Of a stretch of 45,746 nt of DNA, positions 1 to 45,746 are shown piece after piece. A program made the position numbers and the translations under genes. The notes below the pieces were generated by a model. The model saw only the letters and a list, made by a program, of their open reading frames with translations. It searched no databases and was not told where the DNA came from. How positions within the stretch are numbered: the stretch's first letter is position 1; each line of letters begins with the position of its first letter. Source of the stretch: Escherichia phage vB_EcoS_AKS96. The stretch lies in sequence record NC_024789.1. One strand, written 5' to 3'.

Positions 1-516
1 ATGTCAGAAGAGAAAAAAATTCACCAGAAGATTGGTAACTTCAAGGAGCTTTACAATAAGAAGTATGGCGACATTGCCAATCTTAAGATTAACCACAGAT
101 ACACTCCCGAGCAGGTATTCGACATGGCTGTAAGGTATTTCAGCTGGGCTGAAGAGCAGGCAATTAAAGCTATCGAGACAGCAAGCTTTCAGGGTGTCGT
201 AACGGAAAACCTTGTTCACAAGCCGAGGGTATTTACGATAACTGGATTCCAACTTTTCTGCGGCGTTGGTCATAATGCCATCAGTAAATGGCGCTCTTCG
301 CCTGGATTTGATGAGGTGATGGAGTTTGTGGATTCGGTAATCTTTGAGCAGAAGTATCAGCTTGGCGTTAACAACATCGTCAACCCTGGACTGATTGGCA
401 AGGACTTAGGCATCGATAAGCCGCAAGAGGTTAACATCAATAACGCTTCAAATGCCGTAGTGAACGATGAAGAAGCTATGAAGGCTGCGCTTGAATCAAT
501 AGTTGATAAACTTTGA
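1..516 (+). CDS. putative terminase small subunit
   Basis: 171-aa ORF immediately upstream of TerL; position and size only, no diagnostic motif. Confidence 0.4.
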   Translation: MSEEKKIHQKIGNFKELYNKKYGDIANLKINHRYTPEQVFDMAVRYFSWAEEQAIKAIETASFQGVVTENLVHKPRVFTITGFQLFCGVGHNAISKWRSSPGFDEVMEFVDSVIFEQKYQLGVNNIVNPGLIGKDLGIDKPQEVNINNASNAVVNDEEAMKAALESIVDKL

Positions 517-6297: not shown

Positions 6298-6314
6298 TTA
6301 ACCGTGTAAATATA

Positions 6315-6336
6315 ACCCGCTTCGGCGGGTTTTTTA
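6315..6336 (+). terminator. rho-independent terminator
   Basis: acccgc-ttcg-gcgggt hairpin plus T-tract. Confidence 0.6.
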
Positions 6337-7356: not shown

Positions 7357-8301
7357 ATGACTATTAAGCTAGATGCTTTCGAGCAGAACAAAATCACCGA
7401 ACACCTGCGTAACATGGGTGTTGAAAAAGCTGATGCAGCTGGCATTTGGACCATCAAACAGCTGACTCAGACGCTTAACCGTAACTACGATCGCGAATAT
7501 GCTGAAACGTCTGTAGTTAACCTGTTCCCGGTCACTAACGAAATTGGCGCTTACGCTAAATACTTCGAATACGGCGAAATGGATGGTGTTGGCTTAGCTC
7601 AGATTGTAGCTGATTATTCAGATGATTTGCCGACGGTTGATGCACTGATGCAAGAGAAGCAAGGTAAGGTGTTCCGTTTTGGTAATGCATTCCTGGTTTC
7701 CATCGATGAGATTGCGGCTGGCGCAGCTACTGGTCAATCACTATCTTCTCGCAAACAGGCTCTTGCATTCGAAGCTCATGACAACCTGCTTGATAAGCTG
7801 GTTTGGAAAGGCTCCGCACCTCACGGCATTAAGTCTGTATTCGATTACGACAACGTAAACCAGGTAGTTCCAAGCGGCGCATGGACTACAGCACAGACTG
7901 CTTACGCTGACGTTAATAGCCTGCTGGATATTATCGAAACAGCAACCCAAGGTATCCATCGAGCTAACAGGCTGCTTCTTCCGGCATCCGCTCGTCGAGT
8001 AATGCAAACTCTGGTCCCGAATACTGGTATTAGCTACTTTGAGTTCTTTGCCCGTAACAACAATGGCGTACAGGTGGAGTTCCTGCAACTCCTTGACAAC
8101 TACGATGGCGCAAACGGCAAGGCTGCAATTGCTTATGAGTACGACCCATTGAACATGAGCATTGAGATTCCAGAAGCTACTCACGTCCTTCCAGCTCAAC
8201 CGAAGGATTTGCACTTCAAGTTTCCTGTAACCTCCAAGTCTACTGGCCTGGTTATCTACCGACCTCTGACCGTTGCAGTAATGAAAGGTATCACCTTCTA
8301 A
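7357..8301 (+). CDS. major capsid protein
   Basis: 314 aa, own promoter and strong terminator, position in head module. Confidence 0.7.
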   Translation: MTIKLDAFEQNKITEHLRNMGVEKADAAGIWTIKQLTQTLNRNYDREYAETSVVNLFPVTNEIGAYAKYFEYGEMDGVGLAQIVADYSDDLPTVDALMQEKQGKVFRFGNAFLVSIDEIAAGAATGQSLSSRKQALAFEAHDNLLDKLVWKGSAPHGIKSVFDYDNVNQVVPSGAWTTAQTAYADVNSLLDIIETATQGIHRANRLLLPASARRVMQTLVPNTGISYFEFFARNNNGVQVEFLQLLDNYDGANGKAAIAYEYDPLNMSIEIPEATHVLPAQPKDLHFKFPVTSKSTGLVIYRPLTVAVMKGITF

Positions 8302-8306
8302 TAAAT

Positions 8307-8330
8307 AGCCCTCTTCGGAGGGCTTTTTTA
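8307..8330 (+). terminator. rho-independent terminator
   Basis: agccctc-ttcg-gagggct hairpin plus tttttt. Confidence 0.65.
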
Positions 8331-8647: not shown

Positions 8648-8671
8648 GGACGCTTTAGAGCGTCCTTTTTT
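8648..8671 (+). terminator. rho-independent terminator
   Basis: ggacgc-tttaga-gcgtcc plus tttttt. Confidence 0.6.
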
Positions 8672-10927: not shown

Positions 10928-10934
10928 CAATCAA

Positions 10935-10957
10935 GCCCCTTCACAGGGGCTTTTTTT
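10935..10957 (+). terminator. rho-independent terminator
   Basis: gcccct-tcaca-ggggc plus ttttttt. Confidence 0.6.
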
Positions 10958-11000
10958 ATGTTATAATTTCAACTCAAACAAACACGAGAGGATTATTTAA

Positions 11001-11377: not shown

Positions 11378-11632
11378 ATGCGGCGTTCCGATTACGAAGA
11401 TGAGGAGCCAGAGGAGTTACACTTCGATGATGACATGATGCTGGCATGGACTGTTTATCAGGCAGCTTCAACTCAATGGCGTGTAGGTATGAACGGCGCT
11501 ACCGGAATAGATTATTCAGTACTCCCTTTCCTCTTTGATGTGTATAATGTCAAGGACAAAGAGATGACTTTAAATGACTTGCGAATACTGGAGTGCAAAG
11601 CACTTGAGATGATGCAAGTAAGGCAAAAATAA
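11378..11632 (+). CDS. tail assembly chaperone, -1 frame segment (lambda T-like); frame open from 11273
   Basis: -1 frame relative to 11001-11315, open 40 nt before the G stop; arrangement typical of G/GT. Confidence 0.35.
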   Translation: MRRSDYEDEEPEELHFDDDMMLAWTVYQAASTQWRVGMNGATGIDYSVLPFLFDVYNVKDKEMTLNDLRILECKALEMMQVRQK

Positions 11633-11655
11633 CCTCCCTTTGTGGAGGTTTTTTT
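11633..11655 (+). terminator. stem-loop with T-tract overlapping the tape measure RBS
   Basis: cctcc-ctttgt-ggagg plus ttttttt. Confidence 0.4.
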
Positions 11656-15102: not shown

Positions 15103-15107
15103 ACTAA

Positions 15108-15127
15108 GACCCTACGGGGTCTTTTTT
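15108..15127 (+). terminator. rho-independent terminator
   Basis: gaccc-tacg-gggtc plus tttttt. Confidence 0.5.
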
Positions 15128-17210: not shown

Positions 17211-17218
17211 AATCACAA

Positions 17219-17239
17219 CCCGCCTAGTGCGGGTTTTTT
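17219..17239 (+). terminator. rho-independent terminator
   Basis: cccgc-ctagt-gcggg plus tttttt. Confidence 0.6.
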
Positions 17240-20677: not shown

Positions 20678-20684
20678 ATGATTA

Positions 20685-20704
20685 AGCCCCTTTAGGGGCT
20701 TTTT
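20685..20704. terminator. bidirectional terminator between convergent genes
   Basis: agcccc-ttta-ggggct flanked by A and T runs. Confidence 0.6.
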
Positions 20705-44656: not shown

Positions 44657-44896
44657 ATGTTCGGACTTACTCAACCACAATTTAATGCAGTTCGCGCCCA
44701 AGCTAAGAAACTTAACGAGGCGGTGGATAAGCTGACAAGCAAGCAGAAGCAGGATAATGACATCATGAAGGCGATTATCTGTGAGTTTCATAGCCCAGTC
44801 AGTACAATCATCGAGAAGATGAAGTTTGTTTGGGTTGCAGGCTATCTTGCTGGTCGCGTAGGTAAGCGTGAAGATGGGGAGCAGATTTATGACTAA
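44657..44896 (+). CDS. hypothetical protein
   Basis: 79 aa. Confidence 0.4.
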   Translation: MFGLTQPQFNAVRAQAKKLNEAVDKLTSKQKQDNDIMKAIICEFHSPVSTIIEKMKFVWVAGYLAGRVGKREDGEQIYD

Positions 44897-45083
44897 ATCA
44901 ATAGGGAAAGTCAGATGTATTGGGTCTTACAATGATAAGAAGTTCAAAACTGGTAAATCTTACAGCATTTTGTCATCACCCGCATATGGTTGGGTTAAAT
45001 GTGAGTCAGAAGATGGGTGTATAGAGATGGTTAAAGATGGCAATGACATTGAGTTTGGTTACTTTGAGGTATTTTATGACTGA
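44889..45083 (+). CDS. hypothetical protein
   Basis: 64 aa from ATG 44889 (ggggag RBS), overlaps upstream stop. Confidence 0.35.
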   Translation: MTKSIGKVRCIGSYNDKKFKTGKSYSILSSPAYGWVKCESEDGCIEMVKDGNDIEFGYFEVFYD

Positions 45084-45140
45084 GATATCAATCTGGTTCC
45101 TGGCTGGCATGTTGACGTGGATTTATTTCGTCGTCATGGC

Positions 45141-45169
45141 TTGACGAAAATGTTAAAAGTGGTTAGTAT
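45141..45169 (+). promoter_or_regulatory. candidate sigma70-type promoter upstream of tRNA region
   Basis: TTGACG, 17 bp, TAGTAT. Confidence 0.4.
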
Positions 45170-45369
45170 TAACCACGTAGACGGCAATGACCGTAACGCG
45201 CATCGCGGAGATGCAAGCCGATAGCCGGGCTGTATAAAGATACGAGGCAAATAAAACCGCAGTTAGACATTGAGTGCTTAGCATAGCGCACGCCTTAATG
45301 CAGTAAGTCGGACTTGACCTTCCGAGGATTGTGAAACCTCCCCGCATTCGGTAAGCGGGACTCATTCTA

Positions 45370-45445
45370 GTTCTGCTGGCGTAACAGGATAACGCAGAGA
45401 CCTCCTAAGTCTCAGTTACTGGTTCGAGTCCAGTGCGGAACACCA
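45370..45445 (+). tRNA. tRNA-Arg (anticodon CCU), CCA encoded
   Basis: hand-folded cloverleaf: 7-bp acceptor stem with one G-U, 4-bp D stem, 5-bp anticodon stem with loop CTCCTAA, T-loop TTCGAGT, 3' ACCA. Confidence 0.7.
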
Positions 45446-45461
45446 AACATGGAGCATCCTA

Positions 45462-45647
45462 GTGAATAACTACGAAGTCCGTTTAACTTCCCGCCTAATG
45501 GGTCGGCAATGCAAATCTTGCCAGCAATCCTACGAAGGTAGGTTCATTGCTAAAAGCCCTGAAGAAGCAGTTGCAGCCGCAAAGGCAGCATTTAAGATTG
45601 ACCTGACAGTCCACAAAGTCAGCGTTGATAAAGTATCCCTCGTTTGA
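45462..45647 (+). CDS. hypothetical protein
   Basis: 61-aa ORF followed by terminator; weak RBS. Confidence 0.3.
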   Translation: MNNYEVRLTSRLMGRQCKSCQQSYEGRFIAKSPEEAVAAAKAAFKIDLTVHKVSVDKVSLV

Positions 45648-45675
45648 GATTGGTCATCTCGCAATGCAGTACCTT

Positions 45676-45699
45676 GCCCTCCTTGTGAGGGCTTTTTTT
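45676..45699 (+). terminator. rho-independent terminator
   Basis: gccctc-cttgt-gagggc plus ttttttt; downstream aggagg at 45733 likely serves the ATG at position 1 if the genome is circularly permuted. Confidence 0.6.
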
Positions 45700-45746
45700 C
45701 GTCCATAGTCATGGTACAATGACTTTTAAAACAGGAGGAATATCAA

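Follow-up and report, generated by a model that had tools for sequence, protein, structure and literature searches.

Near the end of the genome of Escherichia phage vB_EcoS_AKS96 (record NC_024789.1, analysed over its full length of 45,746 nt, called the window below), a tRNA-Arg gene is separated from a promoter-like sequence by a leader of about 195 nt. The question raised by this locus is what this leader is. The initial annotation had suggested that it may be either a tRNA precursor leader or a separate small RNA; the answer proposed here is a structured RNA older than the tRNA that it precedes. The published genome of AKS96 (45,746 bp, one arginyl-tRNA) was opened so as to begin with the start codon of the gene for the small terminase subunit (Niu et al., PMC4070988), and terS is encoded at 1..516 of the window (phrog_606). 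The nearest records are those of UDF157lw, C119, phiKP26, the AHP/AHS phages, JK06 and Rogue1, all belonging to Rogunavirus of the Drexlerviridae.

The loci to be compared were gathered with the upstream 79-aa protein (the homologue of Rtp15 and T1 gp59) as the anchor, which gave 55 loci from IMG/VR besides the annotated GenBank regions; some of the 63 loci scanned are duplicates of one genome. The IMG/VR scans returned only the same isolates, and a single metagenome scan added ~12 leaders, all of the Braunvirinae type. The loci designated L035-L075 comprise Webervirus (314 Klebsiella phage records) and a Salmonella/Citrobacter lineage.

Conserved secondary structure of the leader

The leader is a string of hairpins in the order H1, AACG, H2, central junction, Hy and Hz, all on the + strand, as are the other features described below unless stated otherwise. 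H1 (ACGG-CAATGA-CCGT) occupies positions 45181..45194 and is followed by an invariant AACG at 45195-45198 and by H2 (GCATC-GCGGA-GATGC) at 45200..45214. At the 3′ end, Hy (GAGG-ATTGTGAAA-CCTC, 45324..45340) abuts Hz (CCCGC-ATTCGGTAA-GCGGG, 45341..45359), and the linker ACTCATTCTA (45360..45369), with a CATTC motif conserved across lineages, ends at the 5′ end of the tRNA, where RNase P would be expected to cleave. Both hairpins named in the initial annotation, at 45200-45214 and 45341-45359, were present.

The same plan, that is H1 ending at the invariant AACG, H2 and then, at the 3′ end, the abutting Hy and Hz with a CAUUC linker, was found in Rogunavirinae, Braunvirinae (Rtp-like), Nouzillyvirus, Christensenvirus TR1, T1 and the Salmonella/Citrobacter lineage. 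H1 ended at AACG in all lineages that carry it, with at least six different stem sequences (ACGG/CCGT, GCCAC/GTGGC, CCATC/GATGG, CTAGC/GCTAG, GCTC/GAGC and GCGGC/GCTGC). The stem of H2 also varied (CATC/GATG, GCGC/GCGC, GCAGC/GCTGC and GTAGC/GCTAC), while its loop, nCGGA or GCGATA, was kept. Six 5-bp stems were found for Hz (CCCGC/GCGGG, GCCGG/CCGGC, CCCGG/CCGGG, TCCGG/CCGGA, GCTGG/CCAGC and GCTGG/CCAGT), with changes at pair positions 1, 3 and 5, none of which broke the pairing, and with the 3′ half of the loop, (C/G)GUAA, conserved; Hz was also recognized in T1 (CCGC-AGACCCGTAA-GCGG) and in the tRNA-less locus L035. Compensatory changes marked Hy as well: its loop-closing pair is G-C in the group of the window and C-G in the group of EB49, Sf12, Sd1 and Opt719, and the Braunvirinae stems differ again (GGCTG/CAGCC, GGTCG/CGACC). 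The conserved loops and linkers were CAA, nCGGA, (C/G)GUAA and AACG.

When the probabilities from position-anchored shuffles were multiplied over the lineages with different stems, H1 came to about 5e-9 and H2 to about 2e-6. RNAalifold applied to 11 Braunvirinae leaders returned the same hairpin chain, with three compensatory pairs in H1. A roughly calibrated covariance model, R1, which was built from the Braunvirinae leaders alone, matched over its full length at the leader position of Nouzillyvirus (E 1e-8 to 1e-10) and of other Rogunavirinae (E 5e-4 to 0.01), and its match at the leader position of T1 (E 1.2e-5) was the only one in 48.8 kb. In the model-fitted alignment, 92.3% of cells were paired versus 62.9% in shuffles (0 of 500 reached the observed value) and 26-33% when the partners were slid by 1-3 columns, and 30 of the 37 pairs changed on both sides. 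These included all five pairs of helix 1 (H1) and four of five in helix 7 (Hy); all four pairs of helix 2 (H2) covaried, and helix 8 (Hz) was 100% paired with three covarying pairs. The MAFFT alignments A3-A5, in which the short hairpins were out of register, were left out of the column-based counts. The slid-partner control, the model-independent tabulation of stems and the RNAalifold fold agreed with the pair counts, and as far as computation allows, the secondary structure of the leader can be regarded as established.

The covariance-model search of the leader that had been proposed along with the initial annotation yielded no Rfam 15 family beyond tRNA, even at E ≤ 10: only tRNAs were matched in the window at the gathering threshold, in 44900-45746 at E ≤ 10 and in six relatives' loci at E ≤ 1. 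Full-text searches of the literature turned up no account of the leader. Altogether, the comparison indicates that the leader is a real, hitherto undescribed structured RNA shared across Drexlerviridae and a candidate new family. As a class it would comprise structured RNAs of roughly 70-245 nt with covariation support, placed behind a rigidly conserved promoter and matching no Rfam family. It appears to be present in all lineages of a large phage family with a wealth of sequenced genomes, among them T1, Rtp, Rogue1, JK06 and hundreds from Webervirus, whose Klebsiella phages are phage-therapy candidates.

Downstream of H2 lies a block (AAGCCGATAGCCGGGCTGkrTAAAGATACGAGGCAAATA, 45215..45258) that is specific to Rogunavirinae and conserved within the subfamily: 10 Rogunavirinae genomes hardly differ in it, and all 29 phage records carrying it share at least 95% identity. 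Variation is confined to 45233-45234, where it would disrupt the GTAT/ATAC hairpin seen in the window. The whole 5′ block (45175-45258) was 87-99% identical to relatives, the tRNA 82-100% and the 61-aa open reading frame (ORF) downstream of it 95-100%; the idea that the 5′ block is more conserved than its surroundings was rejected, as the tRNA and the ORF are equally conserved. The real anomaly is the central segment, 45259..45320, swapped among relatives in a cassette-like manner. Its identity was 16-40% to relatives whose flanks are 90-100% identical, and at least three unrelated versions were found in Rogunavirinae, one of them common to Nouzillyvirus ESCO41. With the filters off, R1 aligned the centre of the window with the central junction of Braunvirinae (a CCG...CGG outer stem and a CAUU...AAUG inner hairpin), and the architecture of the leader seems to be kept while its central sequence is swapped. 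A decayed tRNA in the central segment was excluded, since ARAGORN and the tRNA model found nothing there, even at E ≤ 10. In Rogue1, JK06 and e4/1c (L007/L008/L006), the leader centre (~45259-45320) contains a tandem duplication, GCCGGACCTTTCCGAGGATTG / GCCGGACCTTCCGAGGATTG, which copies the 5′ arm of Hy.

The promoter in front of the leader is of the sigma-70 type, with the -35 hexamer TTGACG at 45141-45146, a 17-nt spacer and the -10 hexamer TAGTAT at 45164-45169 (45141..45169, +; consensus scan and conservation). It had been called near-consensus; the location stood, but with matches to the consensus at 9 of 12 positions it should rather be called consensus-like. Since seven promoter-like sites of this quality were found in 2.7 kb versus 6.1 expected by shuffles, the promoter is not significant on its sequence alone, and its support is phylogenetic. 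In 60 of the 63 Drexlerviridae loci the anchor gene is followed by TTGnnn-17-TAnnnT, 5-6 nt and then CGTAGAC, CGTAAAC or CGTAGG, and T1 shows the same arrangement at 7588-7630. In the Rogunavirinae alignment (A1), the hexamers were nearly invariant and the spacer sequence variable, the pattern expected of a working promoter. The CGTAGAC-like sequence recurs 5-6 nt past the -10 hexamer in every lineage; in the window it is ACGTAGAC (45175..45182), and judging from the spacing after the -10 hexamer, transcription would start at about 45175-45177. No transcriptome or 5′-end data for any T1-like or Drexlerviridae phage were found in the full-text literature, and the supplements of PMC4070988 list no promoters.

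The tRNA gene and its insertion point

ARAGORN accepted the cloverleaf with an encoded CCA described in the initial annotation and called a tRNA-Arg at 45370..45445 (+), with the anticodon CCT at position 35 of the gene and the CCA at 45443-45445; it scored 57.6 bits with Rfam RF00005 (model positions 1-71) against a gathering score of 29. The anticodon loop is 7 nt long (CUCCUAA), with U33 and a purine at position 37. The identity elements of E. coli arginyl-tRNA synthetase (ArgRS) are A20, C35, U36 or G36, and A73 or G73. In the cmscan alignment, A20 (D-loop AACaGGAuA), C35, U36 and the discriminator A73 were present, followed by the encoded CCA, and the predicted tRNA carries the ArgRS identity elements. 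Searched by blastn against 5,426 E. coli genomes, neither the tRNA nor the leader gave a match, and a host origin of either was rejected.

The assignment of the anticodon CCU to the rare codon AGG was likewise borne out. Counted over 47 crude ORF calls, AGG is the commonest Arg codon of the phage, with 157 of 640 Arg codons (24.5%) and a frequency of 12.5 per 1000 codons; its use is clustered in two large tail genes. In a sample of 42 annotated genes of E. coli K-12, AGG made up 0.68 per 1000 codons and 1.3% of the Arg codons, an 18-fold excess in the phage over the host sample. With AGG the commonest Arg codon in the phage and rare in the host sample, codon supply by a decoder for a host-rare codon is therefore a sufficient explanation of the tRNA. 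The tRNA itself is not new and behaves as expected. A single tRNA-Arg(CCU) has already been published for AKS96 and its relatives and genus (PMC4070988, PMC3496638), and the decoding of a host-rare codon was proposed in the Rogue1 paper (PMC3496638). The published arginyl-tRNA of Rogue1, JK06, AHP24, AHS24, AHP42 and AKS96 is the same gene, credited with offsetting a codon-usage mismatch, and tRNA-Arg is annotated in the records of relatives. What is added here is the 18-fold excess of AGG and the insertion of the tRNA into an older leader.

This insertion was recognized from loci that lack the tRNA. In L035-L075 there is no tRNA at the leader position. These loci retain the promoter, the transcript start CGTAGAC and one hairpin or several, and the leader runs straight into the Shine-Dalgarno site and the homologue of ORF 45462..45647. 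T1 likewise has no tRNA at the site, and its leader directly precedes gp57. The linker of L035 (CCATTCA) and that of T1 (CAATTCAA) continue straight into the Shine-Dalgarno site, the order being Hz-ACCATTCA-GGAG...ATG in L035 and Hz-ACTCATTCTA-[tRNA]-AACATGGAG...GTG in the window. Because the linker is continuous with the Shine-Dalgarno site in these tRNA-less loci, the comparison places the insertion of the tRNA at the exact junction of the leader's last linker (CATTC) with the Shine-Dalgarno site that serves the first ORF. Since T1, Webervirus and the Salmonella/Citrobacter phages keep the promoter and leader without the tRNA, the leader is best read as an ancestral, family-wide 5′ leader, older than the tRNA, which was inserted as cargo. 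The earlier description as a tRNA precursor leader or a separate small RNA fits the product, as RNase P would release an RNA of ~195 nt, but it has the relationship reversed: tRNA-less relatives keep the leader, and its conservation was left unexplained.

The cargo varies among relatives. Its anticodon is CCU in Rogunavirinae, TR1 and Nouzillyvirus XGG1, and UCU in most Braunvirinae and in ESCO41. An extra tRNA-Trp(CCA) lies between the leader and tRNA-Arg in Sd1 (L001 1466-1539), and an extra tRNA-Val(AAC) 3′ of tRNA-Arg in EB49 (L002 1515-1591); ESCO41 has a decayed tRNA-like remnant at the same downstream position (L016 1062-1121; 26 bits versus the gathering score of 29). With the leader recognized, the locus would illustrate neatly how tRNA genes can be acquired at a single fixed position within a 5′ leader.

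The transcription unit and possible roles of its leader

Between the promoter and the tRNA, the scan found no terminator-like and no further promoter-like site. The tRNA is followed by the 61-aa ORF (45462..45647, +), which appears to begin at a GTG, with the Shine-Dalgarno sequence GGAG at 45451-45454, and by an intrinsic terminator, GCCCTC-CTTGT-GAGGGC and then TTTTTTT, placed before terS (45676..45692, +; terminator scan). The unit ends at a strong intrinsic terminator just 5′ of terS in every lineage checked; terminators of the same kind precede the gene in Rtp, Webervirus and L035, and the records of Sin4 and T1 carry one as an annotated feature. The same layout recurs in Rtp, Webervirus, L035, Sin4 and T1, and we infer that 45141-45692 is co-transcribed as one short unit.

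Taken as a whole, the explanation that we consider fairly probable is that of one sigma-70 unit with an ancestral structured leader that acts in cis and carries a tRNA as cargo. The host sigma-70 RNA polymerase would read 45141-45692, comprising the promoter, the 195-nt leader, tRNA-Arg(CCU), the 61-aa ORF and the intrinsic terminator. RNase P would then cut at 45369/45370, freeing the 5′ end of the tRNA and releasing the leader as a separate RNA, and the freed tRNA would add decoding capacity for AGG, the commonest Arg codon of the phage and among the rarest in the host. The leader itself would most likely act in cis while transcription proceeds: its folded structure would serve as a platform on which a long 5′ untranslated region stays productive, be it by shielding it from Rho and from 5′-end-dependent decay, by ordering the processing or by setting the expression of the downstream cargo. 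Our confidence that it takes part in expression or processing in this way, in cis and co-transcriptionally, is moderate. Excision of the tRNA would sever the leader from the ORF, and the leader is retained all the same; this favours an action during transcription or as a free RNA over classical translational control.

Functional untranslated RNAs released by RNase P or RNase E from leaders and spacers of tRNA and rRNA operons, such as 3′ETS-leuZ, are known from the host. The phage leader resembles them in being an untranslated RNA that flanks a tRNA, possibly with a function of its own, but the host type is short and little structured, whereas the phage leader is 195 nt long, modular, family-wide and older than the adjoining tRNA.

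Several points weigh against this explanation. The leader is not unusually stable (minimum free energy -52.6 versus a shuffle mean of -52.7 kcal/mol, z = 0.03), and taken singly, the AKS96 sequence sets neither the promoter nor the hairpins apart from chance; the evidence for the hairpins is covariation across relatives, not stability. In the anchored shuffles, single hairpins gave P of 0.007-0.3 per lineage (0.007-0.14 for H1), which is weak individually. The only match of R1 in the window, at 45181-45370, was marginal (11.8 bits, E = 0.09 in a 244-kb search; a local search gave E = 0.002, with rough calibration), and the fit of the pair-count alignment to the model structure inflates the paired fraction. 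R1 did not detect Webervirus, L035 and L074 at E ≤ 1, and homology of their leaders rests on synteny, on the promoter and transcript start and on the hairpin layout. Co-transcription and processing are, like the transcription start, the release of the leader by RNase P and any function of the leader, deduced rather than observed. A generic protective or processing role leaves the conserved CAA, nCGGA, (C/G)GUAA, AACG and CAUUC unexplained, which suggests a specific partner. Finally, excision of the tRNA cuts the leader off the ORF and loses any control of translation, yet the leader is retained.

The last two points would suit a stable small RNA acting in trans, freed by RNase P or, in Webervirus, by a terminator-like hairpin, a reading that we consider unlikely but count as one of the two main rivals. 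Such an RNA might act on host or phage mRNAs with its 5′ end, (A)CGUAGAC, as the seed, or sequester an RNA-binding protein. No sequence in the family is more widely conserved than the 5′ end, the leader is kept even where tRNA excision would sever its link to the ORF, and the conserved loop sequences suggest a specific partner. The Webervirus leader, moreover, looks like a small RNA, with a single-stranded 5′ end, a hairpin, GCCCC-loop-GGGGC and a U-rich tail before the Shine-Dalgarno site. However, the genome contains GUCUACG, which is complementary to the 5′ end, at just two sites versus 5.6 expected, one of them being the opposite strand of the leader itself, and no complementarity of at least 12 nt to any + strand phage sequence was found. 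Neither strand gave a blastn-level match in the 5,426 E. coli genomes, a search that covers long matches only and not those of seed length. In Rogunavirinae, some nucleotides of the 5′ end are taken up by the pairing of H1, and in the tRNA-carrying phages the 3′ end has no U-rich tail typical of Hfq-binding small RNAs. A CsrA sponge was also considered and rejected, with 4 GGA in 195 nt versus about 3 expected and hence no enrichment.

Species 1 and 2 of phage T4 (rnaC/rnaD) are stable structured non-coding RNAs located beside tRNA genes and released by tRNA-processing enzymes, and their function is unknown. Like the AKS96 leader, they are structured non-coding RNAs that share a precursor with a phage tRNA. 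They belong to a tRNA cluster, whereas the Drexlerviridae leader also occurs in tRNA-less relatives, and no sequence relationship between the two is to be expected.

A more ambitious possibility, which we regard as quite doubtful, is that the leader is an unrecognised family-wide co-transcriptional regulatory RNA, either a put-like antiterminator or a sensor of a protein or ligand, that gates polymerase into the terminase and structural genes and serves as a landing site for tRNAs as well. If true, it would be an RNA-based late-transcription switch of T1-like phages, which to our knowledge have genes for neither an RNA polymerase nor a sigma factor, and the leader is a candidate for regulation near the early/late gene boundary of these phages, a topic believed to be still poorly understood. 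In its specific form, resembling put of HK022 or nut/qut of lambda, the nascent H1-AACG-H2 would make RNA polymerase resistant to terminators, with read-through of the terminator before terS and of those inside the structural cluster; this we judge improbable. The put and nut/qut elements are promoter-proximal paired stem-loops in the nascent transcript, upstream of terminator-interrupted operons. The leader is alike in that two promoter-proximal hairpins, kept throughout the family, begin within ~10 nt of the point where transcription would start, and the unit stands immediately 5′ of terS with a strong terminator between them. About 10 strong + strand terminators were located within the 20-kb packaging/structural cluster, where terminator-like sites were about two-fold enriched (29 found versus 15.7 +/- 3.8 in shuffles), and the T1 annotation shows the same pattern. 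A co-transcriptional role would also explain why the leader is retained despite tRNA excision.

On the other hand, Rfam searches revealed no similarity to any known antitermination element (HK022 put was not compared directly), and unlike putL/putR or nutL/nutR, the leader has no second copy in the genome: R1 had a single match in the window and in T1. The only 12-mer shared with another site (43074) lies inside a coding ORF, with about 1.2 expected by chance; a loose genome scan for H1-AACG-H2 was too permissive to be informative. Promoter-like sites occur past the terminator in Rtp (TTGACA-17-TAGTAT) and inside the late cluster of the window (11/12 matches at 503 and 10940), which makes read-through unnecessary, and Webervirus lacks the H1 hairpin with a CAA loop.

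That the non-coding block acts as DNA, as a pac site, a replication origin or a region that binds a regulator, with hairpins that are incidental or formed in DNA, is very improbable. Nucleotide conservation is high near terS, where several headful-packaging phages have pac sites, and there are palindromes in the centre such as AAGTCgGACTT. However, DNA sites bound by proteins are conserved in sequence, but the stems of the leader change and only their pairing is kept, and in all cases the element directly follows a conserved promoter in the same orientation. In T1, 7.6 kb separate the element from the terminal repeat and physical end of the genome (1-2800), and a pac site was ruled out on this ground.

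Least tenable of all is a leader that encodes a small protein, be it the 35-aa ORF 45117..45224 or the coding sequences (CDSs) that four GenBank records annotate as 'hypothetical protein' over the leader DNA: the four lie in different frames and on different strands, the 35-aa ORF starts 5′ of the -10 hexamer and has no PHROG or Pfam match, the centre differs in length among close relatives by non-multiples of 3 (e.g., 195 versus 184 nt), only NHVD is conserved in Braunvirinae, and ORF position, lack of a family match and frame-breaking lengths ruled this reading out. The statement of the initial annotation that the leader holds no convincing ORF held up, as no + strand ORF of at least 20 aa starts 3′ of the likely transcription start. 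The four CDSs are Rogue1_0013 (L007 922-1044, +), OPT719_78 (L004 794-925, +), kp_12 (L009 854-1066, -) and ESCO41_00044 (L016 756-944, -). They probably represent over-annotation, since they disagree with each other and overlie a conserved RNA structure. GenBank records leave the leader blank or filled with assorted hypothetical proteins, and its recognition would correct these annotations.

Neighbouring features

The 61-aa ORF downstream of the tRNA belongs to phrog_2919 (E = 7.8e-29, residues 3-60) and has no Pfam match; in Webervirus and L035, a homologue comes directly after the leader. A shorter version of 49 aa, beginning at an internal ATG (45498), is annotated in relatives. These annotations look truncated, because the homologues of Webervirus, L035 and T1 keep the first 12 residues and the PHROG match already begins at residue 3.

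Between the terminator at 45676-45692 and the start codon of terS, an extended -10-like sequence, TGgTACAAT, was noticed at 45712-45720 (+), and the corresponding position of Rtp (L018 1472-1500) holds a complete TTGACA-17-TAGTAT; terS may have a promoter of its own. The ten strong intrinsic terminators detected by the terminator scan on the + strand of the packaging/structural cluster lie at 532-556, 2654-2670, 6314-6331, 8307-8324, 8648-8665, 10933-10952, 11631-11650, 15106-15123, 17217-17235 and 20684-20701. Two cluster terminators adjoin or overlap promoter-like sites with 11/12 matches (503-530 and 10940-10967).

In Webervirus, the last hairpin of the leader, GCCCCnnnnnGGGGC, is followed by TTTTATT or ATTTAC (L039 ~2325-2350 and loci of the L040 type) and resembles an intrinsic terminator or attenuator. 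It stands directly before the Shine-Dalgarno sequence AGGGG, with which its CCCC arm could pair instead.

Upstream of the leader, a hydrophobic micro-ORF of 22 aa, MTEISIWFLAGMLTWIYFVVMA, was found at 45076-45144 (+), its ATG overlapping the stop codon of ORF 44868..45083 and its TGA overlapping the -35 hexamer. It is kept in Rogunavirinae and Braunvirinae (Rtp: MSELTIWFIAGLIAWGYFLIA) and is mostly unannotated in relatives. Since it is conserved in both subfamilies with mostly synonymous differences, it probably encodes a real small membrane peptide. Further upstream, an HNH homing endonuclease gene lies just 5′ of the anchor gene in Sf12 (L005 1-236). Together with the swapped centre of the leader and the variable tRNAs, it suggests that the neighbourhood of the leader is a hotspot of recombination and insertion.

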